DNA from: Eubacteriales bacterium
GTDB taxonomy: Bacteria > Bacillota > Clostridia > Oscillospirales > CAG-382
DNA length: 64,000 nucleotides
Assembly (NCBI GenBank): GCA_045541355.1
Contig: JAZQIW010000046.1
Span: 3,733-67,732 of the forward strand
Direction of reading: 5' to 3'
Below the pieces are notes generated by a model, which saw nothing but the letters and a program-made list of their open reading frames with translations, did no database searches and had not been told where the DNA came from. Position 1 is the first letter of the stretch; the number at the start of each line of letters is the position of its first letter. This document shows positions 9,191 through 36,809 of this stretch, piece after piece. The translations under genes and the position numbers were made by a program.

Positions 9191-9346
9191 TGCAAAATAA
9201 ATTTCAAAAATTCTTTGCGTTGCTTTCTTATAAGAAAGCGACCGGGTTTCCAAAGGCGAGAAGCCTTTGGTCGCTGTCCGCAGACAGCGAAACTTCTTAG
9301 TGCTTAAAACAGCGCAGGAAAGGTGAATTTTTTAATCATAAAGGGC

Positions 9347-9380
9347 AAAAAAGAGGAAAACCCTCGCCGGGGGTTTTCCT
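9347..9380 (-). terminator. rho-independent terminator (minus strand), probable spoIVA terminator
   Basis: Arms AGGAAAACCC and GGGTTTTCCT form the hairpin. The A-run at 9347-9352 on the plus strand gives a U-tract on the minus strand. Confidence 0.6.
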
Positions 9381-9412
9381 GAAATATGCAACTGCTCTTT
9401 CAAAATGACTTA

Positions 9413-9444
9413 GCCCCTCCGCTTTGGGCGGAAGGGCTTTTTCC
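9413..9444 (+). terminator. terminator-like hairpin with T-run, near-copy of the 9157 terminator
   Basis: GCCCCTCCGC-TTTG-GGCGGAAGGGC followed by TTTTT. It differs from the 9157-9183 hairpin at only 2 positions. Confidence 0.55.
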
Positions 9445-9476
9445 TGCGCATTGAATTGTATTTCCTATGCAGCTTG

Positions 9477-10955
9477 TTATAATAAAATGCAGATAAGTCC
9501 TCCCGCACCCTCGTTTATTATTTTCTGCAGGGTGTCGCAGAGCTTGAGACGTGCATCTGAGGGCATATGGCTGAGCTTTGCATTGAGACTCTCGTTTATA
9601 AGCTCGTGAAGGGTTTTGCCGAATAGATTTGATTCCCAGATTTTGGCGGGGTCCTCTTCAAATTCCTTGAGTAGATACTTTACAATGTCCTCTGACTGCT
9701 TTTCCGAGCCGACAATGGGACTTACCTCCGCCTTGATGTCCGCCTTCATGAGATGAATTGAAGGTGCGGAAGCACGCAGCTTTACGCCGTAAGAGCCTGC
9801 CTGCTTTACAATTTCCGGCTCTTCGAGTGTCATGTCCTCGACAAGAGGCGTGACAATGCCGTAGCCTGTTTCTTCAACATCTCGAAGGGCACTTTCAAAC
9901 TTGTCGTATTTTCGCTTAGAGCTTGAAAGGGAGGAAATTATTCTGATAAGGTCCTCGTCAGAGCCGATTTCAAGTCCCGTTTCGTCGCCGAGAATCTTGT
10001 AGAAAAGCTCTCTCGGTACACTGACGTCGAGATTTGCCGTGCCGTCGGATAGGCTAACACTGCTAAGATGCAGTCCCGTTCCGTATTCGCTGTCATATAC
10101 CTCGGAAAAGGCATCGGATATTTCGCTTAACCTTGATACTGTCTGAGCCCTTTCGCATATGCCGTCAATTATTCTGCTTCTTAACGGATGGCTTTCGGAA
10201 AGGGTGTTTATCCAGGCGGGAACGGCAAAATTCAGCTCTGTCACGGGAAATTCATATAACAATCCCTCAAGTATTCTGAGAATGTCATTTTCTGACATAT
10301 TCAGGCAGTCTATGCTGATTACGGGGATGGAATATTTTGCCTCAAGCTCCTTGCAAAGCTTTGAAGTCTCCTCACTGTCGGGACGGGATGAGTTGAGAAG
10401 CACCGTAAACGGCTTTCCCGACTGTTTCATTTCTTCAATAACCCTTGCCTCTGCCTTTTCGTAGTCGGCTCTCGAAAGCTCTGAAAAACTGCCGTCGCAG
10501 GTGATGACAATTCCAACCGTCGAATGCTCGGTTATGACCTTTCGTGTGCCGATTTCGGCAGCTTCTTCAAAGGCTATGGGCTCAGAATGCCATGGTGTCA
10601 TTACCATGCGCGGCTTTTCGTCTTCGTAAAGACCGAGTGCACCCGGGACAATGTAGCCGACACAGTCAATAAGCTTTACGTTAAAGCCTGCTCCCGAGGG
10701 AAGGGTGATGTGCGCAGCATCGTTGGGTATAAACTTCGGCTCTGTGGTCATTACTGTCTTTCCCGATGCGCTTTGGGGAAGCTCGTCGAGGGTGCGGCTT
10801 TTGCTGTATTCGTTGTCCATGTTGGGAATGATGAGCGTGTCGAGAAAATTCTTGATAAATGTCGATTTTCCCGTTCTCACCGGACCTACAACACCTATGT
10901 AAATATTGCCGCCGCAACGCTGTGAAATGTCGTTGTATATGGATGCTTGAGTCAT
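9477..10955 (-). CDS. spoIVA: stage IV sporulation protein A
   Basis: 492 aa. N-terminus MTQASIYNDISQRCGGNIYIGVVGPVRTGKSTFIK carries the Walker A motif. Length and sequence are characteristic of SpoIVA. Confidence 0.95.
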   Translation of the reverse strand: MTQASIYNDISQRCGGNIYIGVVGPVRTGKSTFIKNFLDTLIIPNMDNEYSKSRTLDELPQSASGKTVMTTEPKFIPNDAAHITLPSGAGFNVKLIDCVGYIVPGALGLYEDEKPRMVMTPWHSEPIAFEEAAEIGTRKVITEHSTVGIVITCDGSFSELSRADYEKAEARVIEEMKQSGKPFTVLLNSSRPDSEETSKLCKELEAKYSIPVISIDCLNMSENDILRILEGLLYEFPVTELNFAVPAWINTLSESHPLRSRIIDGICERAQTVSRLSEISDAFSEVYDSEYGTGLHLSSVSLSDGTANLDVSVPRELFYKILGDETGLEIGSDEDLIRIISSLSSSKRKYDKFESALRDVEETGYGIVTPLVEDMTLEEPEIVKQAGSYGVKLRASAPSIHLMKADIKAEVSPIVGSEKQSEDIVKYLLKEFEEDPAKIWESNLFGKTLHELINESLNAKLSHMPSDARLKLCDTLQKIINEGAGGLICILL

Positions 10956-11133: not shown

Positions 11134-11892
11134 ATGGATACAAAAATCAACATTCGCGGTGTGTATTTCGATAATGTTACCTTTGATGAGGCTATGGAAA
11201 AGGTTTACGGCTTTGTCTCGGGAAACACTCTTTCGGTCATGCATACACCAAATTCCGAAATCGTTCAGAATTGCATAGACGATAAAAGCCTTTATGAGGT
11301 GATTAATTCCGCTGACCTTGTTGTGCCTGACGGAATAGGCGTTGTCTATGCCTCGCGCATACTCAAAACGCCCCTTAAGGCAAGAGTGCCGGGCTGTGAG
11401 GTCGCCGAAAAGCTGCTTGAATATGCGGCAAAAACCGGTGACGGCGTGTTCTTCTTCGGAGGCGGCAAAAAGACCGACCTGAGGGATGCGGTGTCAGTTC
11501 TTGCGGCAAATAACATGAGAGAAAAATATAAGGGACTTAATGTTGTCGGCACAAGAGACGGATACTTTTCAGAAAGTGATGTTGATGGCATAATAGATGA
11601 GATAAACGCTTCGGGTGCAAAGATACTCTTTGTGTGTCTCGGCGCGCCCAAGCAGGAAAAGTGGATATACGATAACAGGGATAAGCTTAAGGTCAGCTTT
11701 GCGGCAGGGCTCGGCGGAACACTTGATGTTTTTGCGGGAACGGTAAAAAGAGCACCTGAGTTTTTCATAAAGACAAATCTTGAGTGGTTTTACAGAATTG
11801 TATGCAATCCGTCGAGGTTCGGACGTTTTCTTAAGCTTCCGAAGTTCCTGTTCGGCACAATTATCCATAAGAATAAGGACACCGAAAAGTAA
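11134..11892 (+). CDS. WecB/TagA/CpsF-family glycosyltransferase
   Basis: 252 aa with motifs VPDGIGVVYASRIL, FFFGG and LFVCLGAPKQEKWI, typical of TagA-like N-acetylmannosaminyltransferases. Confidence 0.85.
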   Translation: MDTKINIRGVYFDNVTFDEAMEKVYGFVSGNTLSVMHTPNSEIVQNCIDDKSLYEVINSADLVVPDGIGVVYASRILKTPLKARVPGCEVAEKLLEYAAKTGDGVFFFGGGKKTDLRDAVSVLAANNMREKYKGLNVVGTRDGYFSESDVDGIIDEINASGAKILFVCLGAPKQEKWIYDNRDKLKVSFAAGLGGTLDVFAGTVKRAPEFFIKTNLEWFYRIVCNPSRFGRFLKLPKFLFGTIIHKNKDTEK

Positions 11893-13076
11893 TGCTTCTG
11901 AAAACACTTAAAACGCAGAATTTCAGAAATCTTGCCGATAATCCGCCTGAGTTTTGCGACGGTATAAATGTTCTTTACGGCGATAATGCCGCGGGAAAAA
12001 CAAACACCCTTGAGGCTGTATATCTTTTTGCCACGGGCAAAAGCTTCAGAACAAGGCAGGAAAAGGATTTTATCCGCCACGGCGAGAGCTTTACCAGAGC
12101 AGAAATTGAATATAGCGGTATATGCGGTAACCGTTCTATGGCAATAACCTATGCTGCGGCAGGGGCAAAGACGGTAAAAGGGATGCAGATAGAAGAGACG
12201 ATGGTTGACAGGGTATCGGAATTTCTCGGAAACTTCCGCGCTGTTCTCTTTACTCCCGACCATCTTGAGCTTGTCAAGGGAGCACCCGAGGAAAGACGCA
12301 GACTTGTGGATATGGCGCTTTGCCAGATAAAGCCGAGGTATGTAAAAAGCCTTAATGACTATGCCAAGGTGCTTGCCCAGAGAAACATTTATCTTAAAAA
12401 TGCAAAAATCCGTTCTTCAAGGGTGGATGAGGACTATCTTGATGTTCTGAATAGACAGCTGGCACAGGCAGGTGCGGTTATTGTCAAGCAAAGAGGTCTT
12501 TATTGCCACAAGCTTTCGCTGCTTGCGGGAGAAATGTACTCATCGCTGACGGGCGGAAGCGAAACGCTTTATGCAAGATATATGTCAAGAGCAATAGCGG
12601 GTGACGGTGCTGACGAAGAAGAAAACGCAAGCATGCTTTATAATATGTACAAGAAAGATGTGTCAAGGGATGTTGAGCTTGGCAAAACGAGCCACGGTCC
12701 GCACCATGACGAGCTTATGATATATGTTGCCTCAAGGGATGAGGCGGAGAATGTGTTCAAAAGGGCAAGGGAAAGCTTTTGCGAGGGACTTTCGGACTTT
12801 GCGGCAAGAAGCTTCGGCTCACAGGGACAGCAAAGGAGCGCGGTGCTTTCGATAAAGCTGTCCGAGGGTGAGATTATCAAGGAAAAATGCAGCGAATATC
12901 CGGTGTTTCTGCTTGATGACCTTTTCAGCGAGCTTGACGATTCAAGACGGGAAAGGCTTTGCGAAATGTTCGAGGACAGACAATGCATAATTACCTGCTG
13001 TGATAAGGCATCGCTTCCCAAAAAGAGCCACATGAAAATAACAAACGTGAAAGACGGAAAATATTTTCCTCTTTAG
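11892..13076 (+). CDS. recF: DNA replication/repair protein RecF
   Basis: N-terminus LKTQNFRNL, Walker A GDNAAGKTN, signature SQGQQRS and Walker B FLLDDLFSELD. The start codon overlaps the upstream stop by 1 nt (TAATG). Confidence 0.93.
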   Translation: MLLKTLKTQNFRNLADNPPEFCDGINVLYGDNAAGKTNTLEAVYLFATGKSFRTRQEKDFIRHGESFTRAEIEYSGICGNRSMAITYAAAGAKTVKGMQIEETMVDRVSEFLGNFRAVLFTPDHLELVKGAPEERRRLVDMALCQIKPRYVKSLNDYAKVLAQRNIYLKNAKIRSSRVDEDYLDVLNRQLAQAGAVIVKQRGLYCHKLSLLAGEMYSSLTGGSETLYARYMSRAIAGDGADEEENASMLYNMYKKDVSRDVELGKTSHGPHHDELMIYVASRDEAENVFKRARESFCEGLSDFAARSFGSQGQQRSAVLSIKLSEGEIIKEKCSEYPVFLLDDLFSELDDSRRERLCEMFEDRQCIITCCDKASLPKKSHMKITNVKDGKYFPL

Positions 13077-13375: not shown

Positions 13376-15556
<2,181 letters not shown>

Positions 15557-26452: not shown

Positions 26453-26464
26453 GAACGTTTGTTC
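26453..26464. promoter_or_regulatory. LexA (Cheo/DinR) box 1: GAACGTTTGTTC
   Basis: Perfect GAAC-N4-GTTC core, 11 nt upstream of the -35 hexamer. Confidence 0.7.
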
Positions 26465-26475
26465 TAATTTTTTCA

Positions 26476-26504
26476 TTGACTATTTGGCAAAAATGTGGTA
26501 TAAT
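26476..26504 (+). promoter_or_regulatory. sigma-A promoter (TTGACT-17-TATAAT, TG-extended)
   Basis: TTGACT at 26476-26481 and TATAAT at 26499-26504, with TGTGG just upstream. Confidence 0.7.
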
Positions 26505-26518
26505 ACAATCACGATATC

Positions 26519-26530
26519 GAACACGTGTTC
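26519..26530. promoter_or_regulatory. LexA box 2: (C)GAACACGTGTTC(T)
   Basis: Perfect GAAC-N4-GTTC palindrome 15 nt downstream of the -10, over the expected transcription start region. Confidence 0.75.
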
Positions 26531-26566
26531 TTTCGGCTCAGCCGATATATTTTTTATCGCAAAATA

Positions 26567-26578
26567 GAACGGATGTTC
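26567..26578. promoter_or_regulatory. LexA box 3: GAACGGATGTTC
   Basis: Perfect GAAC-N4-GTTC core in the leader, 12 nt upstream of the AAGGAGG ribosome-binding site. Confidence 0.65.
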
Positions 26579-26603: not shown

Positions 26604-26795
26604 ATGGAAAAAGACAAAAATGAGTATTTTGAAGCTGTCCATCATTACACGGTCTGTGCCCAGTGCGGATATAGATTTGTAAGCGGCGATGAGGCACTGG
26701 TTGTAAAGCAGACGGGGGATATGATACATAGAGACTGCTATATGGACTATAACGAGGATAACATGAATGAGCTGTGTGAGAGCATTGAGTATTGA
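26604..26795 (+). CDS. 63-aa Cys/His-containing protein of unknown function (first gene of the cluster)
   Basis: AAGGAGG lies 6 nt upstream of the ATG. CAQCG...HRDC spacing suggests a small zinc-binding fold. Confidence 0.5.
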   Translation: MEKDKNEYFEAVHHYTVCAQCGYRFVSGDEALVVKQTGDMIHRDCYMDYNEDNMNELCESIEY

Positions 26796-26811
26796 AGGAG
26801 GGAGCTTTAGG

Positions 26812-27204
26812 TTGGCGGCAAGGAAAAAGGAGAGGTATCTTGACCTTGAGGAAAGGATAAATGACTATTTTAAATACTGTGACAGCATCAATGAGGAGCA
26901 TGGGGAGATAGTAAAGCCCTACACTCTTTCGGGGCTTGTGTGTCACCTTGGATTTACGAGGGAGGAATTTGAAAAGCTTTCAAGGATTAAGAGAAACGAG
27001 AGAATTGTGCTTCGTGCCAAGGCAAAAATTGAAGCGTTTATTGAGGAGAATGCACTTACGGGAGAGCTTTCGGTAAACGCTTCGGCAAACAGCTTGAAAT
27101 TTAATTTCGGTTGGGGGGATAAGGGCGAGGCTAAGCCTTCTGAGACGGCTGAAAAGAATATTGTTGTGAGCCTTTCGGAACAGGCAGCCGAGCTTGCAAG
27201 ATAA
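26812..27204 (+). CDS. terminase small subunit (putative)
   Basis: TTG at 26812 lies 7 nt after GAAGGAGGGAG and just after the upstream stop. The sequence INDYFKYCDSINEE...KPYTLSGLVCHLGFTREEF is typical of phage small terminases, and the gene sits directly before TerL. Confidence 0.65.
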   Translation: MAARKKERYLDLEERINDYFKYCDSINEEHGEIVKPYTLSGLVCHLGFTREEFEKLSRIKRNERIVLRAKAKIEAFIEENALTGELSVNASANSLKFNFGWGDKGEAKPSETAEKNIVVSLSEQAAELAR

Positions 27205-27209
27205 GAATT

Positions 27210-28526
27210 ATGAAGAAAAGCAGCCTCTGTAAGCAGCTTGTTCTTTCGGGTGAGCCACAGGAAAAGCAACGACGTTTTTTTCTTGCCGATACAAAGTATG
27301 TTGCCTACGGCGGTGCAAGAGGCGGAGGCAAAAGCTGGGCACTCAGACGAAAGCTTGTGCTGCTTGCACTCAATTACACCGGCATTAATCTTTTGCTTAT
27401 AAGGCGCACCCTTCCCGAGCTTCGTGAAAATCACATAAGACCGCTACTGTCCGAGCTTTCCGAATTTTGCAGCTATTCCGAAATGAAAAAATGCTTTGTG
27501 TTTCCCAACGGCAGCAGACTGAGACTCGGTTATCTCGACAGCGACGGTGACCTTTTGCAGTATCAGGGACAGGAATATGACATTATAGCAATTGATGAGG
27601 CGACACAGCTGAGTGAATACCAATTTCAGACGCTTAAAGCCTGTCTCAGAGGTGCCAATTCCTTCCCTAAACGAATGTACATTACCTGCAACCCCGGCGG
27701 TGTCGGTCATGCATGGGTAAAGCGGTTGTTTATTGACAGAGAGTTTCGCGAGGGTGAGCATCCTGAGGATTACACCTTTATTCAGGCACTTGTCTACGAT
27801 AATGAAGTCCTGCTTCGCCAAAATCCCGATTATCTTGAGCAGTTAAAGAGCCTTCCCGAGTCACTTAAGGGCGCATGGCTGTGCGGAATGTGGGACGAAT
27901 TTGAAGGACAGTTCTTTAATGAATTTGATTATTCGGTGCATACCGTTTCGGATTATGATATACCCGAAGGGTCGCTCAGATATTGTGCAATAGACTACGG
28001 TCTTGATATGCTTGCGGCGGTGTTTGTGGCGGTAACGCCCGAGGGAAGATGCGTTGTGTATGATGAAATACATAAGGAAAACTTGATTGTCAGCCAAGCA
28101 TCGGGGCTCATAAGGCAGAAGGCTTTTGGGGTAAGCATGTATATTGCGCCGTCTGATTTGTGGTCAAGACAGAAGGACAGCGGTAAGAGTATAGCAGAGC
28201 TTTTCGGTGAAAACGGTGTGTATCTGACAAAGCTTAAAAGCGACAGAATCGGCGGCTGGATGTGCTTAAAGGAATTTTTGAAGGTAGAGGATGGCAGGTC
28301 AAGGCTGATAATAAAGAGATGCTGTGTAAATCTCATTCGATGTATGCCGCTGCTTTTGCATGACAGGCACAGAATAGGGGATGCTGCCACAAAGCCGCAT
28401 AATATAACCCATGCGCCGGATGCGCTGAGATATTTTGCCGTTTCACGCTACGGTGATTTTTACGGCGAAAAGCAAAAGACAAGTACAAAAAAGCTTAAGG
28501 AAATGATAAACAGAAAAAGGAGATAA
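27210..28526 (+). CDS. terminase large subunit
   Basis: Walker A YGGARGGGKSW, Walker B YDIIAIDEATQL, and a C-terminal RNaseH-like nuclease part (CAIDYGLDM, HAPDALRY); 438 aa. Confidence 0.88.
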   Translation: MKKSSLCKQLVLSGEPQEKQRRFFLADTKYVAYGGARGGGKSWALRRKLVLLALNYTGINLLLIRRTLPELRENHIRPLLSELSEFCSYSEMKKCFVFPNGSRLRLGYLDSDGDLLQYQGQEYDIIAIDEATQLSEYQFQTLKACLRGANSFPKRMYITCNPGGVGHAWVKRLFIDREFREGEHPEDYTFIQALVYDNEVLLRQNPDYLEQLKSLPESLKGAWLCGMWDEFEGQFFNEFDYSVHTVSDYDIPEGSLRYCAIDYGLDMLAAVFVAVTPEGRCVVYDEIHKENLIVSQASGLIRQKAFGVSMYIAPSDLWSRQKDSGKSIAELFGENGVYLTKLKSDRIGGWMCLKEFLKVEDGRSRLIIKRCCVNLIRCMPLLLHDRHRIGDAATKPHNITHAPDALRYFAVSRYGDFYGEKQKTSTKKLKEMINRKRR

Positions 28527-28529
28527 CAC

Positions 28530-30287
28530 ATGAAGGGAAAAAACTACGAAAAAAACATATCCCGTTCCGGGATGTACTCATATTCGTCACGTCTTGAAAG
28601 AGAGGAAACAATTGCCTTTCTTTATGATTATGCCGCAAAGCATAAGCGTGATGTCGGGGAATACTGGAAGAAAATGAAGAGATATTACGACGGAAGGCAT
28701 GATATTTCACTTTCCACCGATGCCTTTTCGGCAAGGGAAGGTCTGCCCTTTAAGGCGGCTGAGTGCACAGACGGCTACATTCACGTCGAAACACAAATCA
28801 ATCACAATGTTCCCGATTTTGAATTCTCACCGCGAGACAGAACAGACTATGATAAAGCAAAGCAGAGAGAAAAGATAGTAAAATACGTAGTTGACAATGC
28901 CGGCCTTGAAGGTAAAAACTCCCGCAACGAAAGACGCCTTAACATATACGGCTCGGCAATCTGGAAGGTGTGCTGGGACTCGGGAATAAGAATCGGCAAG
29001 GATTTGGGAGACGTTACGGTTGAAAACCCGAGACCCGAGGAAATAATTACCGACCCTACTGCCTGTGATGTCGATTCCTGCGAATATATTGCTTATGTTT
29101 ATCCCATGCACAAGATGCGTGCAAAGAGAGTATTCGGCGCAGATATAAAGTCTGAGGGAAGTGATTTTTCGGAGTATCTCTGCGACGATATGACCAAAAA
29201 TCCTCTCGGCTACGTTTCCTCTGACAGATACGATACCGATGACGATACCGTAAATATCACCGAATGGTGGTACAGACAGCCGAGTGACGGCAGCGCCGAC
29301 ATTACAAGGCTTGTGAACGGGGAAAAGAGAGTGTACCGTTATGAGTGGAAGGCTGGAGATATTGCCCTTTCGGTGCTTATAAACGGAAAGGAAGTAAGGT
29401 ACATACCAAAGTATTGGAAGAACACAGACTGCCGCAGCTTTCCCTTTGTTGTTTACAGCAAGATACCCAACGAAAAAAGCATCTGGGGTAAGAGTGAGCT
29501 TGAAATGCTGATTCCCCTTATTGACGCCAAGGACAGAGAGCTTTGCTTTGCACAGCTCAACGGGGCGTATTCTTCAAACGATATAATTGTCATGGAGGAA
29601 AATGCTCTTTCCGACGGTGAAAGCCTTGATAATTCTCCCGGTGCCGTCTGGAAGCTGAGACCGGGAATGATGGGCAAGGTCTCAAGACTTGGAAATCTTT
29701 CGTCAGCATCTGCCGCTTTATATGAAGGCTCTTCCTTCTGGCAGAGCATGATTGAAAGCACAACAGGCATCTTTGAAGTAAATCAGGGAAAAGAACCCAC
29801 AAACGTTACAACTGCCACGGGTATTGCGCTTCTTAACGAAAGAGCCGAGAACCGAAAGAGCATTAAGAATATTGACAGAAATGCGGGCTTTAAGCGTCTT
29901 TATATGCTTATAGACTATACCTGTCTTGAGAATTACAACGACGGCAGAATAATAAGAATGGGACTTGAGGAGGGCGAAGATGTTGTATACAGCTTCGGAG
30001 GCTTTATGAGAAAGTCGAGACAGGGCTCATACATACCCGAGCTTGATGTTACAATTCACACAGGCTCTGCCATTACAAACTCAAAGGCATTTACCGTTTC
30101 TGCCCTTACGTCGCTTATCGGTACCGATATAAACGAGACGAATTACAGACTTGTAAAGGCATATGTTGAGGCAATCGGAATACCCGAAAGGTCGGAGATT
30201 TGCGAAAGCCTTGACAGGCAATTTGAAAAGGCAGATATTAATCAGGACAACAGCGACAGCCCGGAAGGAGAAATGAATGATGAATGA
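28530..30287 (+). CDS. portal protein (putative)
   Basis: 585 aa, immediately downstream of TerL and upstream of the scaffold-like gene. The call rests on position and size; I could not verify a diagnostic motif by eye. Confidence 0.6.
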   Translation: MKGKNYEKNISRSGMYSYSSRLEREETIAFLYDYAAKHKRDVGEYWKKMKRYYDGRHDISLSTDAFSAREGLPFKAAECTDGYIHVETQINHNVPDFEFSPRDRTDYDKAKQREKIVKYVVDNAGLEGKNSRNERRLNIYGSAIWKVCWDSGIRIGKDLGDVTVENPRPEEIITDPTACDVDSCEYIAYVYPMHKMRAKRVFGADIKSEGSDFSEYLCDDMTKNPLGYVSSDRYDTDDDTVNITEWWYRQPSDGSADITRLVNGEKRVYRYEWKAGDIALSVLINGKEVRYIPKYWKNTDCRSFPFVVYSKIPNEKSIWGKSELEMLIPLIDAKDRELCFAQLNGAYSSNDIIVMEENALSDGESLDNSPGAVWKLRPGMMGKVSRLGNLSSASAALYEGSSFWQSMIESTTGIFEVNQGKEPTNVTTATGIALLNERAENRKSIKNIDRNAGFKRLYMLIDYTCLENYNDGRIIRMGLEEGEDVVYSFGGFMRKSRQGSYIPELDVTIHTGSAITNSKAFTVSALTSLIGTDINETNYRLVKAYVEAIGIPERSEICESLDRQFEKADINQDNSDSPEGEMNDE

Positions 30288-31209
30288 TGTTGTAAACGAA
30301 AAGGTAACAAAAACCGAGAATATGTCGGTTGATTGTGACACAGCAGCCGAAAACGGCTTTGAAAATATACAAAGTACAAAGAATGAGAAAACCTTTACCC
30401 AAAGCCAGCTTGAGGAGATTATATCCGAAAGGCTGTCAAGGGAAAGAAGGGTGAACGAGTCCCTTTCGGATGTGAAAAAGCTGCTTAAAGGCGCAGCTCA
30501 AAAGGGACTTCTCAAGGGAACGTCATATGCCGAAATGGCAAGAGAGCTTGTGAGCCAGCTTTCGGCGGAGACGGAAGGAGCTGTGGAAAAGAACACACGG
30601 GAGCATACCGAAGTGCCTGAAAAAACGGTGTCTGAAACAGAAGAGGAGCCCTTTTCTGAGGATGACAGGGTTGGTGAGCAGAATCAGGAAAATGTCGGTA
30701 TTCCCGAGGATGAAAACTTTGCGGCCGCAGACGCAAAGGAGCATGACGCACAGAGCGGTACGGTGTCGGACAGCACTTTAAGCAAAGAGAGTACGCAAAG
30801 AAAAGAAGAAGCCGATGTAATGAAAGGCTTTTTTGAAATACTCTCCGCAATCAGGGAAAAACACGGGAAAGAGGGCGTGGAAAAGCTTATGCAGGCGGAA
30901 CTCTTTGAAAGCTTTGCCAAGGGCAGAAGCGGCAGCATAGGCGATATTTTCTCGGATTTTTGCAGCTTTATGGATGCACTTGGCACCGGTAATGCTGCTG
31001 CAGATAAAACCGAGGCACAGGGGGACAGAATCGACAGCGATTTTTCATCCACAGCCTTTTCGGCACACTCTGCAAGCACGGTATCGGCGAAGGATTCGCT
31101 TACAAAACAGCAGATGGAAATAGCAAGGAGCGCGGGAATGTCCTACCGCGAATATGCAGAGCTTTTAGGCTCTATTCCATCGGGAAAAAGAGGGACAAAA
31201 AATAATTAA
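30277..31209 (+). CDS. scaffolding-like acidic protein (putative)
   Basis: Overlaps the portal-gene stop by 11 nt. Highly acidic and predicted helical. The stretch FTQSQLEEIISERLSRERR resembles phage scaffold (DUF4355-type) N-termini. Confidence 0.5.
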   Translation: MMNDVVNEKVTKTENMSVDCDTAAENGFENIQSTKNEKTFTQSQLEEIISERLSRERRVNESLSDVKKLLKGAAQKGLLKGTSYAEMARELVSQLSAETEGAVEKNTREHTEVPEKTVSETEEEPFSEDDRVGEQNQENVGIPEDENFAAADAKEHDAQSGTVSDSTLSKESTQRKEEADVMKGFFEILSAIREKHGKEGVEKLMQAELFESFAKGRSGSIGDIFSDFCSFMDALGTGNAAADKTEAQGDRIDSDFSSTAFSAHSASTVSAKDSLTKQQMEIARSAGMSYREYAELLGSIPSGKRGTKNN

Positions 31210-31224
31210 AAAAGGAGACAGAAT

Positions 31225-31866
31225 ATGAAGTTTTTATATGGACTCGGGGGCGCAAATGTTCCCGTGATCAAGGAGTTTGATATTGACCCCGCAACAAAAA
31301 TCAATGCAGGAAGTGCTGTTTCTATTACCTCCGAGGGAAAGGTGACAGAGACAATCAGCGGTGCTGTTCTCGGCGTTTGTGCCGAAAATCACCCGGGGAA
31401 AGAGGATATGCTCAATAAAAGAGCAAACGGTAACAGAGTAAGAGTTGATATCACAAGCGGCGGAGTATACAGCATAAAGTTTCCCGAATTTGAGGCTGTA
31501 TTTGGCGGTGTCGAAAACACTTTTTCAAGTGATAGTACAAATCTTTCCTCTATCGGAAAGGGTGCAAGATTTGTGCTTGTGAAAAAGGCGGCGGATTCCA
31601 CAAATACAGATAAGATAGGAACTGTAAGAGAGGCTATCTCCGCCGACTTTGGAAGCAACGGAAATTTCGAGTTTGTTTTCAACGACGGCGGCACACCGTC
31701 AAAGGGTGATGTATACGCGTATATTACCCCTGTCGGCTCTTCTGCAGTTGTCTGCGACGGATACAGACTCGACATTTCGGGTGTCGGCAGCGGTGCCAAG
31801 GTTGTCGGCTGCGATGAAAAGAACAGAATGGCACACATTGTATTTACAAACAAAGTGTTTGCATAA
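31225..31866 (+). CDS. 213-aa head-module protein of unknown function (decoration/auxiliary capsid protein?)
   Basis: AAGGAGA ribosome-binding site. Gly/Val-rich and beta-like in composition. Lies between the scaffold-like and capsid-sized genes. Confidence 0.4.
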   Translation: MKFLYGLGGANVPVIKEFDIDPATKINAGSAVSITSEGKVTETISGAVLGVCAENHPGKEDMLNKRANGNRVRVDITSGGVYSIKFPEFEAVFGGVENTFSSDSTNLSSIGKGARFVLVKKAADSTNTDKIGTVREAISADFGSNGNFEFVFNDGGTPSKGDVYAYITPVGSSAVVCDGYRLDISGVGSGAKVVGCDEKNRMAHIVFTNKVFA

Positions 31867-31884: not shown

Positions 31885-32808
31885 TTGATGAACGATATTT
31901 ATACATGGCATAATGACCTCTATCCTCTTATTAAGAAGAGATTTGATTTAAGATACGCAAAGCGTCTTGATGTCATCAATCAGGTGTGCGACGTTGTGTG
32001 TCAGGATGATATTGATTACCGCATTGAAGGTATCGGCGGCTACGGCGAAATGCCCGTATATGACGGCACTGTTGTTGCCAACGCCGACAGCAAGCGTACC
32101 TTTATTACAACAATTACACCCAAGGAGCACGCTCTTAAGGTGACAAGCACCTATAAGAAGGCAAAGCTTGATTACTCGGGCGAATCAAAGAAAATCGGCA
32201 CACGCCTTGCGGATTCGGCATATATGACCGTGCTCAACGAATTCTACCGCCTTTTCGGCTCTGCATTTACAAATGAGGGTGCCGACGGCGAGCCTTGGGC
32301 AAGTAAGTCCCATCCCGTAAGCTGTGAGGGGGATAACGGCACATTTTCAAACCTTATCGAGGAGGAGCTTTCTGTTGCCGCAATCACAAAGGCTCAGACC
32401 ATGTCCTCCCGTTATATTACACCCGACGGTCTTCCCTTTGCCTGCAATATGGACCTTCTTCTTGTAAGCCCTGAGCTTGAGGCAAAGGCAAAGGAAATCT
32501 GCGGTCCCAATGCAAAGCTTATTCCCGAAAACAATCCTGATGAAACGGCAGGCTGCAATGCGGCAAATCCCGTTTACGGCATGAAGTATCTTGTTGTGGG
32601 CGGCGGTGAAGCAGGCTTTTGCGGCAAGCAGTGGGCGGTTGCGGATTCGCTCATGCTTTCCGAGGTATTAAAGCTTGTATATATTACAAAGCCTACCGTT
32701 CTTGTTTCTCCCCAGGACAACCCCCTTATAACCGACTATATCGGTTATGTGGACTTTGCTTTCGGTTTTGGTGATGCAAGACCCATTATTTTCTCAAATC
32801 CCGCATAA
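31885..32808 (+). CDS. major capsid protein (putative)
   Basis: 307 aa with an AAGGAGA ribosome-binding site, positioned after the scaffold-like gene and followed by a strong hairpin. The call rests on synteny and size. Confidence 0.55.
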   Translation: MMNDIYTWHNDLYPLIKKRFDLRYAKRLDVINQVCDVVCQDDIDYRIEGIGGYGEMPVYDGTVVANADSKRTFITTITPKEHALKVTSTYKKAKLDYSGESKKIGTRLADSAYMTVLNEFYRLFGSAFTNEGADGEPWASKSHPVSCEGDNGTFSNLIEEELSVAAITKAQTMSSRYITPDGLPFACNMDLLLVSPELEAKAKEICGPNAKLIPENNPDETAGCNAANPVYGMKYLVVGGGEAGFCGKQWAVADSLMLSEVLKLVYITKPTVLVSPQDNPLITDYIGYVDFAFGFGDARPIIFSNPA

Positions 32809-32830
32809 GCGAAGGGGTTAAAAAACGTTT

Positions 32831-32859
32831 GAAAGCCGTCCGCAAAGCGGGCGGCTTTC
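32831..32859 (+). other. stable 13-bp hairpin without U-tract between the capsid-sized gene and distal genes
   Basis: GAAAGCCGTCCGC-AAA-GCGGGCGGCTTTC with one G-U pair, followed by GTGAAAGGAG rather than a T-run. Confidence 0.6.
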
Positions 32860-32875
32860 GTGAAAGGAGATTTTA

Positions 32876-33802
32876 ATGTCAGCTAATAATACATACGCTT
32901 GCTTTAAAAGGCGGGTATATCAGGTGCTTGATGAATACTTTGATAATACGGATGAGGTGTTTGTAAGCGATTCGAGAAGAGACAGGCTGGATGCAAAAAT
33001 GGCAGACACGCTTGGGTGGGGGCTTTGCCGTATGTATGAGGGACTTCCCAAAAAAACGGGCAGCAAAAAGGTGGAGGTAAACCTACCGAGAAGGCTTGCG
33101 AGCAGGGAAGAAATGAATTACGGCGGAATATTTGAGTTTTCACCCGTAACCCGTCCTCTTGCGGTTATTTTTGAATATACGGGCTCAGGAAGCCTTTTGC
33201 TTTGCGACGAGGATTTGGTGCCGGTTTTCACCCTTGAGCTTGACGGAAGTGAAGGCAGGCTTGAAACAAAAAGGTTTTTCACCGATAATGTATCCTCTGC
33301 CATTTGCTACGCCTATGTGACGCAAAGTGTCTGTGCACGAAAGTTCACGATATATGACAAGGGAAATATGACAAACATATTTGAGATACCGAGAAAAGGA
33401 ATGTGCTCCTTTGCCGTCGGGGATGACTGCGGCAGAATAAAGGCAATGGAAATGCTTTCGGGAAAGCAGGTAAACCTTGGCAGTCTTGAGCTTTCCAATG
33501 ACTTTGGGTATCTTGATGCCGATAACCGTTATGACGGGGAGATTGTGGCTCTGACATATGAAAAGAAGGCTCCCGAAATTTCGGAAAATGTGCCCGATGA
33601 CTTTGAAATTCCTCTTTGCGGCACAGAATTTGATGCCCTTGTGAGCCTTTGTGCGGCAGAGCTTTGCAGGTCGGAGGACAGCAATCTGTACGAGAGGCTT
33701 TTGCAAAAGTACAAGGATTTGTACGAGGGACTGTGGTCTTTTGCAAACAAAACAATACAGCGAAACGGCTTTTATACGGCTGTAAACAGAAGGCGGTGGT
33801 AA
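32876..33802 (+). CDS. 308-aa protein of unknown function
   Basis: AAAGGAGA ribosome-binding site. Intact ORF with host-like codon usage. I recognise no motif. Confidence 0.5.
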   Translation: MSANNTYACFKRRVYQVLDEYFDNTDEVFVSDSRRDRLDAKMADTLGWGLCRMYEGLPKKTGSKKVEVNLPRRLASREEMNYGGIFEFSPVTRPLAVIFEYTGSGSLLLCDEDLVPVFTLELDGSEGRLETKRFFTDNVSSAICYAYVTQSVCARKFTIYDKGNMTNIFEIPRKGMCSFAVGDDCGRIKAMEMLSGKQVNLGSLELSNDFGYLDADNRYDGEIVALTYEKKAPEISENVPDDFEIPLCGTEFDALVSLCAAELCRSEDSNLYERLLQKYKDLYEGLWSFANKTIQRNGFYTAVNRRRW

Positions 33803-33803
33803 T

Positions 33804-35594
33804 ATGGGACATATTCCTTGTACTGTAATAAAACCAAAGACTACGGGCAACAGACGCTTTCGATTTGATGCACCCGTAAAGGGCTTAAGGCTGAGTGAAA
33901 AGGATACAAGCTTTGCCGAGGGCACCTGCCGAGAACTGTATAACATGGATATAGGCACAGGCAGTATTGAAAGCTCGGGGGAGAAGAAAAGGCTGTTTGA
34001 AGGCATCAATACCTCGGGCATTGCTCTTCACAGCATTACAAAGCAGGGGTATATGGGAAGTGTTTTTTTGCATCTCGGAAGCTGTCTTTACCGATATGAC
34101 ACAGCTTTGGATAAGCCCGTACTTGTTTCAGACAGCCTTCCCGATAAGCACAGCGTTATGTGCGTATTCATGTCCTCGCTCTATATATACTGCGACACGT
34201 ATGTTTACAGGGTTGATTCGGACTTTATGTTTTACGAGGAATACCCCGATGCACCCCTTCTTTTTACGAATGTTGACCCGGTTCTTGCGAGGGATTCCGA
34301 AAGACTTCCTGATGTTCCGCTAAACCTTCTTGCCCCGAGAATTAAGGTGAGATATAAGGCATCCGACGCTCTGCTTTATATACTCCCCCTATCTATGAAC
34401 GCCAAGAGAAAGCCGAAGGTTTTTGTCAACGGCATAGAGCTTGAGGAAGGCAGATTTACCTATCAGATTGACAGGGTTCAGCTTGCCCACGGCTCAGACA
34501 CAATGGCGGCAAAGTTTGTTGAAGTGGAATACTATGTTTTGGCACCCAATGTCATAGGCTATGAGCCGTATTTCTATAATTGCACGACAGCATCCTCGTA
34601 CGGAGGAGAGGGAATATCGGGGAACCGCCTTTTCTTTTCGGGTGACAGGCAGAAAAAGGGGGCGTGCTATAAAAGCGAACACAGAAATCCTTTGTATTTT
34701 GGCGAGAACGAACAGTTTGTAATCGGCGACGGATATGATAATGTTACGTATCTTGGCAGAATGTATTCCGACCTTATAGTTCTTTCTGAGCTTGGAACAT
34801 ATAAGATTACAAGCTTTATTGAGGATGAAATTGAGGTCTTTAAAACAAAGCAGATAAGCGGCGAAATTGGCTGCGATATGCCTGAAAGTGCCTGCCTTGC
34901 AGATAACAGAATAGTGTTTGCCAACTCAAAACGCGGAATTTTCATTGTGGATTTCAATGAGGACTATCAGGAGCACAACGTAAAGCCTGTTTCAAGGAAT
35001 ATTGAAAGAGGCAAGGGAATGGGACTTCTTGAAAACAGCAAGGAGGAGCTTATAAAGGCAGAGGGCATTGACCTTGACAGAAAGTATCTGCTTTTGTGCG
35101 GTGACAAGCTTTATATATGGGACTACGATAAGTGCAACTACTATGATACCGGCAATTTTAACGAATCCCAGACAAGGCTTGTATACAGCATCTATAAAGA
35201 CGTAGGATGCGACGGTATGTTTGCAATTGACAGCATGGCGGTAGTATACAAAAAGGATATCCTTGAGGCATATGTCTTTGATACTTCTTTAAGAGAAAAG
35301 CAAAGCGGCTTTGAAACGGGGGAATGTGATTTCGGCGAGCCGTCACTCAGAAAGCTTGTTAAAGATATGCATTTTGTGGTGCGTGCAGACGAGGGCGCGG
35401 TGCTTACCTTAAAGCTTTTTGCAGACGGGGTTTGTTATTATGAAAGAAGTATAGCCTTTACTCAAAGGAAAACCGTGAGAATAAAAGAGGTTATACCCAA
35501 GAATGAAATGTTCACCCTGTCCTTTGCAATTGATGCAGAAGGCGGAGGCTTTGAATTCTTTTCTGCAACGGCAGTTTACAGTATCATAGAATAA
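33804..35594 (+). CDS. 596-aa protein of unknown function (repetitive beta-rich sequence)
   Basis: The start lies 1 nt after the upstream stop, implying translational coupling. Recurrent aromatic/Gly-Asp segments (LYIYCDTYVYRVD, GDKLYIWDYD) suggest a beta-propeller or beta-sandwich fold. I recognise no motif. Confidence 0.5.
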   Translation: MGHIPCTVIKPKTTGNRRFRFDAPVKGLRLSEKDTSFAEGTCRELYNMDIGTGSIESSGEKKRLFEGINTSGIALHSITKQGYMGSVFLHLGSCLYRYDTALDKPVLVSDSLPDKHSVMCVFMSSLYIYCDTYVYRVDSDFMFYEEYPDAPLLFTNVDPVLARDSERLPDVPLNLLAPRIKVRYKASDALLYILPLSMNAKRKPKVFVNGIELEEGRFTYQIDRVQLAHGSDTMAAKFVEVEYYVLAPNVIGYEPYFYNCTTASSYGGEGISGNRLFFSGDRQKKGACYKSEHRNPLYFGENEQFVIGDGYDNVTYLGRMYSDLIVLSELGTYKITSFIEDEIEVFKTKQISGEIGCDMPESACLADNRIVFANSKRGIFIVDFNEDYQEHNVKPVSRNIERGKGMGLLENSKEELIKAEGIDLDRKYLLLCGDKLYIWDYDKCNYYDTGNFNESQTRLVYSIYKDVGCDGMFAIDSMAVVYKKDILEAYVFDTSLREKQSGFETGECDFGEPSLRKLVKDMHFVVRADEGAVLTLKLFADGVCYYERSIAFTQRKTVRIKEVIPKNEMFTLSFAIDAEGGGFEFFSATAVYSIIE

Positions 35595-35623
35595 AAAAAC
35601 CGCAGGCACAGCCTGCGGTTTTG
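35593..35623. terminator. bidirectional rho-independent terminator
   Basis: AAAAAAA-CCGCAGGC-ACA-GCCTGCGG-TTTT, lying between convergent genes. Confidence 0.85.
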
Positions 35624-35636
35624 TGTATGAAAAAGC

Positions 35637-36809
35637 TTAGATTTCAGGAATTACGATGTCGATTTCCTTGCCGATACTGTGGCTCTTTGCAATACCGTCG
35701 ATAATTGCCTGATTGTAGAGAATCTGGCTTGAAGGAACGGGTGCGCCGAGGGAAGGATTGTCAATGGCATCAAGGAAGCTGCGAAGCTTCTTGTCGAAGA
35801 GGCTCATGCCGCTGTAATCTTGGAGAATCGGCACCTTTGTTTCAACCTGAGCACCGGCTACGTTCTTGTAGATTGTCATTTCGCCGCCAACAGAGCCGTT
35901 CCAGCAGTCTGTGGAGGGGATTCTGAGACCGCCCTCTGTGCCGAGGATGATTGTATCGCCGGGGGTGTTGATGTTCATTGCCCATGCAATTCTGAAGTCG
36001 AGTATAATGCCGCCTTCAAGTCTTACGAATGCTGCCGCAAAGTCGTCTACACCGAAGATGTCTGCATATTCTGCAGGTCTGCCTTCTTCAGAGAAGGTCT
36101 TGGGGTTCTTTCCAAAGAAGTCGGACTTATAACCCGAAACCGTCAAAGGCTTAGGATAGCCGATTGCGTTGAGAACCATGTCAAGGCTGTAACAACCGAT
36201 ATCGCCGAGAGCACCGATGCCGCCCTTGTCCTTTTCGATAAAGGATGTGCCGAAGGGGGTGGGAATACCGCGTCTTCTTCCGCCGCCTGTCTGTATGTAG
36301 TAAACCTTGCCAAGCTCGCCTGATTCAACAATCTTCTTAATCATCTGCATATTGGGGTCAAGTCTTGGCTGGAAGCCGATGGTAAGAATCTTGCCGCTCT
36401 TCTTTTCCGCTTTCATAACCTCAATTGCTTCTTCAAGTGTAACTGTGAAGGGCTTTTCAAGCATTACGTTGATACCTGCCTCAAGTGCACGAATAGCACA
36501 GGGCGCGTGCTGGCAGTTGTAAGTACAGATGCTTACACCGTCAAGCTCCTTTTCGTTTGCGAGAAGCTCCTCGTCGCTGTTGTAGCAACGTGCTTCAACA
36601 CCAAATCTCTTGAAAAAAGCCTCTGCCTTGCCGGGTATAAGGTCTGCACCCGCAACAACTTCAACATCGGGCATATTCATATATGATTCCATATGTGCTT
36701 CTGCAATCCAGCCTGTACCGATGATGGCGATTTTGTACTTTCTGCCGGATGTTTTTACTTCCTTTGCACCTGTCTGGTTGGGGTCAAGGTTTGTATTTGA
36801 TATAGCCAT
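35637..36809 (-). CDS. Gfo/Idh/MocA-family NAD(P)-dependent oxidoreductase
   Basis: N-terminal Rossmann motif KIAIIGTGWIAEAH; 390 aa with a typical family C-terminal domain. Confidence 0.85.
   Translation of the reverse strand: MAISNTNLDPNQTGAKEVKTSGRKYKIAIIGTGWIAEAHMESYMNMPDVEVVAGADLIPGKAEAFFKRFGVEARCYNSDEELLANEKELDGVSICTYNCQHAPCAIRALEAGINVMLEKPFTVTLEEAIEVMKAEKKSGKILTIGFQPRLDPNMQMIKKIVESGELGKVYYIQTGGGRRRGIPTPFGTSFIEKDKGGIGALGDIGCYSLDMVLNAIGYPKPLTVSGYKSDFFGKNPKTFSEEGRPAEYADIFGVDDFAAAFVRLEGGIILDFRIAWAMNINTPGDTIILGTEGGLRIPSTDCWNGSVGGEMTIYKNVAGAQVETKVPILQDYSGMSLFDKKLRSFLDAIDNPSLGAPVPSSQILYNQAIIDGIAKSHSIGKEIDIVIPEI

Follow-up and report, generated by a model that had tools for sequence, protein, structure and literature searches.

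Among described systems, the one closest to the locus studied here is FpGTA, the gene transfer agent (GTA) of Faecalibacterium prausnitzii (Nat Commun 2026;17:2046, PMC12946183). Its operon I spans 10.5 kb and comprises ten open reading frames (ORFs), with genes for the small and large terminase subunits (TerS and TerL), portal, scaffold, major capsid protein (MCP), and hypothetical proteins, and its operon II, of 5.5 kb and located 125 kb away, carries fiber, receptor-binding protein (RBP), holin, and endolysin genes. The particles measure ~40 nm, have no visible tail, and contain 8.4 to 8.9 kb of host DNA, and the operon is nearly ubiquitous within the host genus (PMC12946183). Mass spectrometry of purified particles found both an adaptor and a nozzle. 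In the liquid chromatography-mass spectrometry (LC-MS) table (Supplementary Data 2), RCH50849 is given as the MCP, RCH50848 as "unknown," RCH50847 as "Adaptor (PDB=7sp4)," and RCH50846 as "Tail nozzle (PDB=8eap)," with spectral counts of 1,226 for the MCP, 8 for the adaptor, and 20 for the nozzle (PMC12946183). Here, we analyzed a 64,000-nucleotide stretch of contig JAZQIW010000046.1 from a Eubacteriales bacterium (referred to below as the window) and, within it, ORF7 and ORF8, the last two genes of a phage-like operon, whose predicted structures are those of a head-to-tail adaptor and a tail nozzle and which likely close the particle of a comparable, host-controlled GTA.

The FpGTA study reported GTA-like packaging in Oscillospiraceae, with a candidate operon found only in Faecalibacterium (PMC12946183), and a July 2026 preprint, which noted a satellite-like element in an Oscillospiraceae metagenome-assembled genome (MAG), could not identify a convincing GTA cluster there. 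Only FpGTA and unassigned Oscillospiraceae MAGs have been shown to package random host DNA in particles (PMC12946183; July 2026 preprint). As for short-tailed phages, the adaptors of T7, KP32, and SU10 have a helix bundle, a dock domain, and a C-terminal segment that embraces the portal, the dock domain being absent in the adaptors of P22 and Sf6 (PMC9509320). The host of the locus described here is a spore-forming Firmicute, a member of the uncultured gut Clostridia of Oscillospiraceae type, and the signs of it in the window are SpoIVA, GyrB, a RecF-like ATPase, Der, a UvrD-type helicase, a surface protein with SLH and Big_5 domains, glycoside hydrolases, and transporters.

First, we examined ORF8. 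A word-indexed search returned 38 homologs, all unannotated and nearly all of 590 to 617 amino acids (aa). The AlphaFold2 model, built on a 31-sequence alignment, was almost entirely beta, with a predicted local distance difference test (pLDDT) score of 89.8 and a predicted template modeling (pTM) score of 0.86. When the model was compared with the PDB using Foldseek, ranks 1 to 30 were all podovirus nozzle, hub, or muzzle chains (E values from 5.6e-18 to 2e-10). The best of them was P22 gp10 (8eap_D; E value of 5.6e-18; template modeling [TM] score of 0.66 normalized to gp10), at a sequence identity of ~9%, and the matches also included Pa223, GP4, Sf6 gp8, SU10 gp17, phiM1, VP1, T7 gp12, Kp7/Kp9, HRP29, Pam1, and the crAss001 muzzle. 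The first non-nozzle fold was a GH43-type propeller (E value of 1.7e-7; TM score of 0.14), and generic propellers, as the class ranking second, scored worse by a factor of at least 1000. The predicted fold, a beta-sandwich platform with a beta-propeller core, fits solved nozzles better than other fold classes, and in the related chromosomal islands described below, the gene adjoins the adaptor gene in a head/tail module that has a P22/SU10-type portal. By its modeled structure, ORF8 is a podovirus nozzle (tail hub).

The only sequence homologs of ORF8 in cultured phages were 594-aa "virion structural proteins" of the Bacillus megaterium podophages Page, Pony, and Palmer and their relatives (E value of ~3e-12). 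An exhaustive hidden Markov model search retrieved 4,553 clusters at 50% identity with E values of ≤1e-3, 995 of them at ≤1e-30, so that a large family (at least 4,500 clusters at 50% identity) matched by no Pfam or PHROG model in these searches can now be named, from its predicted fold, as podovirus nozzle. Approximately 20 members are 700 to 1470 aa long owing to N-terminal extensions; in a Rosetta-stone test, these long proteins had no adaptor at the N terminus and no Pfam domain in the extensions. Pfam PF11134, which we take to be the P22 gp10 family, gave no match for the ORF8 family at an E value of ≤1, and a precomputed flag on homolog P0026 was not reproduced. Weak matches to DUF2460 (1.4e-4) in two family members were set aside as weak and inconsistent with the fold.

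Homologs of ORF7 were few (two from the single sequence and seven from the profile), and given that this protein evolves fast and has so few homologs, its relatives were taken as the upstream neighbors of the ORF8 homologs. Their alignment shows conserved N- and C-terminal segments, the C terminus being RNxFY...RW, around a variable middle. Natural variants of 125 aa (contig L018), 146 aa (L007), 187 aa (L017), 212 aa (L019), and 303 to 333 aa differ essentially in this middle insert. In the AlphaFold2 model (pLDDT score of 80), residues 7 to 56 and 249 to 296 form a helical core (helices 7 to 21, 32 to 56, 249 to 263, and 269 to 296), residues 61 to 230 form a predicted inserted beta-sandwich, and the C-terminal tail (residues 293 to 308) is predicted to be disordered in the monomer. 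Full-length Foldseek searches of the PDB matched 195- to 236-residue chains of podovirus tails (Shigella phages B2 and Moo19, N4, SU10, and KHP30), with the adaptor chains 9d83_B, 9lc0_H, 9d80_B, 7z47_A/B, and 7wmp_m giving E values of 2.6e-6 to 7e-4 and TM scores of 0.44 to 0.50 normalized to the target, where the identity of these chains as adaptors was taken from chain size, entry titles, and the SU10 paper. Among the viral predicted structures of BFVD, the named matches were "Head completion adaptor," "Head to tail adaptor," and "Tail tubular protein A," and the insert alone attracted carbohydrate-binding and other jelly-roll modules.

A second line of evidence for ORF7 comes from sequence profiles. 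The profile of the ORF7 family matched the L019 ortholog with a probability of 99.3% (E value of 2e-20), skipping the insert, and this ortholog in turn matched Pfam PF24175 (SU10_adaptor) with 35.7 bits versus a gathering cutoff of 27 (L017 reached 22.4 bits). This makes the sequence link of ORF7 to SU10_adaptor a transitive though solid one, and ORF7 may belong to that family by way of its ortholog. Since the helix bundle, the inserted beta domain, and the disordered C-terminal tail match the layout of the T7, KP32, and SU10 adaptors (PMC9509320), we assign ORF7, from its model and the transitive profile link, as an SU10/T7-type head-to-tail adaptor with an enlarged beta-sandwich insert. It can thus be annotated as an adaptor of the SU10 type in which the inserted domain varies. 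The insert is placed where T7 and SU10 adaptors dock their fibers, and we speculate that it docks fibers encoded elsewhere or binds the cell surface. With regard to cell surfaces, positions 5374 to 9120 of the window encode a 1,248-aa protein with three SLH and six Big_5 Ig-like domains. It is likely anchored in the S-layer and could conceivably serve as a receptor for such particles.

ORF7 and ORF8 are separated by a 1-nt gap (...GGTGG TAA T ATG...), and the adaptor/nozzle junction stays tight in related islands, ranging from a 4-nt overlap to a 4-nt gap. Between the stop codon of the MCP gene (32808) and ORF7, there is a hairpin (coordinates of all features are in Table 1) with a minimum free energy of about −23 to −26 kcal/mol (z = −3.3 against dinucleotide shuffles; 1 of 200 shuffles folds as well), and a good Shine-Dalgarno sequence (AAAGGAG) lies 3′ of it, followed by the ATG of ORF7. 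An equivalent hairpin occupies the same position in islands L013 and L011/L012, and phage Page has an annotated terminator at the matching place, right after its capsid gene. This element is probably a partial terminator or mRNA stabilizer that sets the ratio of capsid to tail expression. It would lower read-through or stabilize the capsid mRNA, which fits the need for hundreds of capsid subunits versus 12 and 6 tail subunits. Given that the adaptor and nozzle genes are tightly coupled behind the hairpin, their products would be synthesized in far smaller amounts than the capsid protein, in agreement with the low counts of adaptor and nozzle in the FpGTA LC-MS data and with the position of the Page terminator. 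Directly 3′ of ORF8, a terminator is shared with a convergent GFO_IDH_MocA oxidoreductase gene.

This layout, with ORFs of 308 and 596 aa, a 1-nt gap, a hairpin after a capsid-sized gene, and a terminator, had been described at these same positions by a preceding inspection of the DNA (the sequence-only reading), and every element of it was reproduced. The suggestion that the 596-aa protein is beta-rich, with a propeller or sandwich fold, agrees with the AlphaFold2 model, and the loose comparison with a podovirus adaptor and nozzle pair proved correct: monomer structure prediction followed by Foldseek, part of the check proposed there, gave nozzle matches for ORF8 and SU10/T7-type adaptor matches for ORF7. 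Mass spectrometry of particles, also proposed there, is available for the analogous Faecalibacterium proteins, with both detected (PMC12946183). What does not survive is the description of the two genes as the least explained part of the system, both being standard head-completion and DNA-exit proteins, an outcome that the same reading had named as speaking against it.

The only phage-like genes within the window form one nine-gene operon on the plus strand, in the order zinc-ribbon protein, TerS, TerL, portal, scaffold-like protein, 213-aa unknown protein, MCP, hairpin, adaptor, and nozzle. All nine ORFs are intact. No integrase, repressor, replication, fiber, needle, or lysis genes were found in the operon or elsewhere in the 64 kb. 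For comparison, we took islands on several metagenome contigs and in seven GTDB genomes, the latter being human and ruminant gut MAGs of Oscillospiraceae or unclassified Clostridia. A genome scan with 17 closer ORF8-family sequences gave only seven loci because these patterns are specific to the close family. Most islands sit at the same chromosomal place, with a UvrD-type helicase or WbsX-like gene upstream and GFO_IDH_MocA and glycosidase genes or BcrAD-type/DUF2229 genes downstream. In the comparison of shared flanks, which covered 11 related islands, most had the same flanks, and the flanking proteins were 55 to 86% identical to those of the window. No integrase, excisionase, primase/replicase, or repressor gene was found in or beside the islands examined, and the flanks of 13 related chromosomal islands consisted of host genes only.

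Selection was measured as the ratio of nonsynonymous to synonymous substitution rates (dN/dS) in one unsaturated pair of islands, L011 and L012 (dS of ~0.2), and every gene in this pair is under purifying selection (Table 1). The conserved site together with purifying selection indicates a vertically inherited, maintained element and argues against a random prophage remnant. The MCP is even more conserved (75 to 88% aa identity) than the flanking housekeeping genes, with a dS far below that of the neighboring island genes, and the 213-aa gene is mosaic (L001 and L009 are 82% identical in it and 46% identical to L013), patterns that hint at codon constraint and recombination between islands. 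The phage ancestry of the island is shown by contig L018, which looks like a genuine phage and carries a related nozzle and a short adaptor together with a holin, a carbohydrate-binding module (CBM) protein, and a 3,563-aa virion-type protein.

The operon is preceded by a sigma-70-type promoter-like site bracketed by three GAAC-N4-GTTC boxes. This motif has three matches in the whole window (0.95 expected), all of them within 126 bp around the promoter, and all 13 related chromosomal islands have one to three such boxes upstream of TerS at a distance of ≤600 nt; across islands, the consensus extends to (C/A)GAAC-N4-GTTCTAA. The phage-like L018 has none upstream of TerS. The LexA consensus of Bacillus subtilis is CGAAC-N4-GTTCG (PMC4551915), and since the box core equals it and is conserved at the promoter, SOS/LexA control of the capsid operon appears likely from these motifs. 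The conserved boxes suggest DNA damage as an induction signal that can be tested directly. The leader that separates the promoter from the first gene also contains a small hairpin followed by a T-run (TCGGCTCAGCCGA TATATTTTTT; window positions 26533 to 26545), with a LexA-like box on either side, which may be a leader terminator or attenuator.

Table 1. Coordinates of the operon features (window positions unless a locus is named), identity of island orthologs to the window, and dN/dS in the L011/L012 pair
Feature	Position	Strand	Description and evidence	Identity to window (%)	dN/dS
Three GAAC-N4-GTTC boxes, putative LexA (SOS) operators	26453-26464, 26519-26530, 26567-26578		Bracket operon promoter		
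Promoter-like site, sigma-70 type	26476..26504	+	TTGACT-17(TG)-TATAAT; 11/12 matches, extended -10; best site in 26-36 kb		
Zinc-ribbon protein, 63 aa	26604..26795	+	CxxC...HxxC (VCAQCGY...IHRDC); first operon gene; overlaps TerS start by 29 nt		
TerS	26767..27204	+	Pfam GP3_package 1e-14; PHROG 606	43-58	
TerL	27210..28526	+	Pfam Terminase_6N/Terminase_3; PHROG 979 at 1e-45	62-78	0.040
Portal protein, P22/SU10 type	28530..30287	+	Pfam SU10_portal 3e-15, P22_portal 1e-14; PHROG 156 at 8e-31	54-66	0.044
Scaffolding-like protein, 310 aa	30277..31209	+	Acidic, low complexity; position and composition	32-49	
213-aa beta-rich protein	31225..31866	+	Conserved in 12 islands; candidate decoration or maturation protein	24-46	0.129
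MCP, HK97 fold class	31885..32808	+	Weak Mu gpT/PHROG 371 matches; orthologs match Pfam Phage_capsid_4	75-88	0.009
Hairpin, 13-bp G+C-rich stem-loop	32831..32859	+	Weak, short U-tract; between MCP stop and ORF7		
ORF7, 308 aa, head-to-tail adaptor	32876..33802	+	ATG start; predicted fold, transitive profile link	24-32	0.127
ORF8, 596 aa, tail nozzle/tail hub (P22 gp10, T7 gp12 class)	33804..35594	+	ATG start; predicted fold	27-38	0.104
Bidirectional intrinsic terminator, 12-bp stem	35596..35622		A-run and T-run on flanks; -20 kcal/mol, z = -4.3		
Post-nozzle cassettes of related islands	L013 12386-13783; L006 12385-13977; L001 14320-17285; L008 13599-14267				

As for the remaining genes, the zinc-ribbon protein has orthologs in all islands, even in the distant L017 and L019, with a weak match to Pfam YqaI in L017; it could be a regulator or a partner of TerS. 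The scaffold-like protein gave no family match in Pfam, PHROGs, or NCBIfam, and the 213-aa protein gave nothing meaningful in these databases or among PDB sequences, its profile matches being at chance level only.

The absence of replication, integration, lysis, and fiber genes, the fixed site, the purifying selection, and the LexA-like motifs together make a domesticated GTA-type particle the most likely interpretation. We therefore consider it probable that ORF7 and ORF8 are the adaptor and nozzle that close the particle of a domesticated, host-controlled, podovirus-derived GTA-type operon, equivalent to operon I of FpGTA, which makes this operon a strong candidate for a podovirus-like GTA in uncultured Oscillospiraceae. 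In P22, the head-completion proteins gp4, gp10, and gp26 join sequentially after packaging and are needed to hold the DNA in the head. The island particle would follow a comparable course: the terminase would fill the capsid through the portal (headful packaging), twelve copies of ORF7 would bind the exposed portal via the helix bundle and C-terminal tail, and six copies of ORF8 would dock on the adaptor ring via the beta-sandwich platform. The beta-propellers would then form a short tail tube that closes the channel, retains the DNA, and later acts as the exit channel. Any attachment or lysis functions would come from genes located elsewhere.

Several points weigh against this interpretation. 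As the sequence-only reading had noted, neither protein has a recognizable family motif. ORF7 itself had no direct match in Pfam (including PF24175), PHROGs, NCBIfam, or PDB sequences, and neither did ORF8 and 31 members of its family, so that both assignments rest on predicted structure, with the transitive profile link in addition for the adaptor. Moreover, the ORF7 model was built from six sequences only, and its structural matches were moderate (E values of 1e-6 to 1e-3 and TM scores of 0.35 to 0.50). The island is known from its genes, from which we infer particle production and DNA content, and likewise we infer the oligomeric state of ORF7 and ORF8 and their binding to the portal by analogy with P22, T7, and SU10. 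With regard to FpGTA, the window MCP gave no NCBIfam match at an E value of ≤0.1, including the N4-gp56 model that names the FpGTA MCP (RCH50849.1), which leaves common descent unproven. The island would work like FpGTA operon I, by a likeness of gene order, annotations, and fold matches, and we make no claim that the two belong to the same lineage.

The remaining points against a working particle come from the reduced state of the window lineage. This copy is missing two genes present in nearly all relatives, one of ~87 aa between the MCP and the adaptor and one of ~175 aa, helical, after the nozzle (window positions 32808 to 32876 and 35594 to 35637 versus L001 positions 8765 to 9028 and 11807 to 12331), and tblastn found no remnants of either anywhere in the window. 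Island L013 likewise has no ~87-aa gene, and the reduced layout is common to two strains with 99% identity. The conserved gene for the ~175-aa protein is located where P22 has its needle gene, and profile searches with the protein gave matches at chance level only. In addition, in one of these two strains, the conspecific L015 (99% nucleotide identity), a 13-nt deletion at window positions 30790 to 30802 frameshifts the scaffold-like gene into ORFs of 176 and 129 aa, so the lineage may be decaying. The frameshift could reflect true decay, or it could be a misassembly of a low-complexity region, coming as it does from a single metagenome assembly. Within the species, substitutions in the scaffold gene (five nonsynonymous to zero synonymous) and in the 213-aa gene (six to one) were mostly nonsynonymous.

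These losses, the frameshift, and the substitutions, together with the absence of fiber, needle, and lysis genes within 64 kb, favor a different explanation, namely, a decaying podovirus prophage remnant in which ORF7 and ORF8 would be adaptor and nozzle by ancestry but would no longer assemble anything useful. We regard it as unlikely, although it is the best of the alternatives. The nine ORFs of the window are intact, as are the promoter and the three LexA-like boxes, and the same core genes have been kept, mostly at the same site, in genomes as diverged as the flanks indicate. Values of dN/dS between orthologous islands were 0.01 to 0.13, and within the species, the ratios of nonsynonymous to synonymous polymorphisms (pN/pS) were 0.19 for ORF7 and 0.34 for ORF8 (seven synonymous to five nonsynonymous and four to five substitutions, respectively), small counts in both cases. 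The window lineage may thus be a streamlined variant of the domesticated GTA-type element or one that is starting to decay.

A capsid-forming satellite, similar to the capsid-forming phage-inducible chromosomal islands (cf-PICIs), would also be expected to have head and connector genes only. It would assemble small heads of its own, complete with adaptor and nozzle, and rely on a helper podophage for fibers, needle, and lysis; genuine phages with related nozzles and adaptors (L018 and Page) could act as such helpers. The enlarged dock-position domain of the adaptor could capture helper fibers, and the satellite-like element of the 2026 preprint was found in an Oscillospiraceae MAG. We rank this explanation low, as quite improbable, because integrase and replication genes are missing and the chromosomal site is fixed. 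No att-like mobility was seen, the position is constant across diverged hosts, neither an excisionase nor a repressor accompanies the islands examined, and regulation apparently depends on the host LexA and not on a derepression module that senses a helper. Finally, a non-virion payload (enzymes, toxins, or a surface structure) co-expressed with the capsids, as the sequence-only reading had entertained, would agree with the lack of direct family matches and with the resemblance of the ORF7 insert to carbohydrate-binding and jelly-roll modules, but it is effectively refuted and was rejected on fold and genomic context, since the whole-protein folds match virion tail components specifically, the position and coupling beside MCP and portal are conserved in all islands and in phages, and the analogous FpGTA proteins are physically in particles (PMC12946183).

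Some relatives of this candidate GTA-type operon carry an additional cassette after the nozzle gene, with proteins of ~100 aa that have three or four transmembrane segments (holin-like), N-terminally anchored proteins of 282 to 322 aa, and peptidoglycan hydrolases (SH3_3+CHAP; DUF3289). This may be a lysis/envelope module and possibly the counterpart of the second FpGTA operon. The earlier claim that the two genes under study must supply any host-attachment structure does not follow, given that FpGTA has its fibers, RBP, and lysis genes in a separate operon 125 kb away and that relatives of the window have extra post-nozzle genes.

Two recent studies saw GTA-like host-DNA packaging in Oscillospiraceae without identifying a convincing locus. 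A more far-reaching idea, which we offer tentatively and consider doubtful as a whole, is that the island family is the so far missing locus behind this packaging and represents a podovirus-type GTA lineage that is under SOS/LexA control and separate from FpGTA. Reduced furthest, as in the window, it would have no external structures other than the nozzle and twelve enlarged jelly-roll domains of the adaptor, the latter binding cells in place of fibers. The steep gradient of divergence between genomes (capsid ~88% and adaptor and nozzle ~30%, all under purifying selection) provides a handle on the parts that face other cells or immunity.

In order to put the adaptor and nozzle into perspective, we compared the locus with known phages. 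The gene order coat-adaptor-hub is that of P22 (gp4/gp10) and Sf6 (gp7/gp8), but ORF8 is ~125 residues longer than gp10, ORF7 has a domain at the dock position that the P22 and Sf6 adaptors lack (PMC9509320), and the island has no needle or tailspike gene. With SU10 (gp11/gp17) and T7 (gp11/gp12), the likeness lies in the architecture of the adaptor and in a nozzle made of a beta-sandwich platform and a beta-propeller (PMC9509320); moreover, ORF7 orthologs match Pfam SU10_adaptor and the island portal matches Pfam SU10_portal. However, the nozzles of these phages are 780 to 920 aa long with extra nozzle domains, versus 596 aa in ORF8, and the insert of ORF7 is a beta-sandwich much larger than the fiber-dock loop domain, with no fibers encoded nearby.

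Among cultured phages, Page offers the direct sequence link. Page_15 (594 aa; L005 positions 13434 to 15218, in the tail module) is 26% identical to ORF8 over residues 213 to 453 (E value of 3e-12), and Page_12 (192 aa, "hypothetical protein"; L005 positions 9255 to 9833, just upstream of the tailspike gene) matches the ORF7-family profile (E value of 6e-4). Page_12 and Page_15 are thus probably the adaptor and nozzle of Page and could be reannotated as such. Page, in contrast to the island, is a full lytic phage of 40 kb that has genes for tailspike, fibers, lysis, and replication. Tailspike and carboxypeptidase genes lie between its adaptor and nozzle genes, and its head genes showed no BLAST similarity to those of the island.

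The comparison with FpGTA operon I is the broadest. Both are chromosomal operons of ~10 kb in gut Oscillospirales, with TerS, TerL, portal, scaffold, and MCP and with no replication or integration genes, and both have the order TerL-portal-X-MCP-small-adaptor-nozzle seen in the island family (as read for FpGTA from accession order and annotations). In addition, 8eap is the best PDB match of both the FpGTA nozzle and ORF8. They differ in host lineage, the island being found in uncultured Oscillospiraceae-type MAGs, in the genes between portal and MCP, which are two in the island (scaffold-like and 213 aa) versus a single one annotated as "Prp" in FpGTA, and in the large beta-sandwich insert of the island adaptor; LexA boxes and a zinc-ribbon gene have no mention in the FpGTA paper (PMC12946183). 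By their predicted folds, the adaptor and nozzle described here are ordinary head-completion proteins; what is unusual is their setting, a GTA-like operon of a type first reported in 2026.

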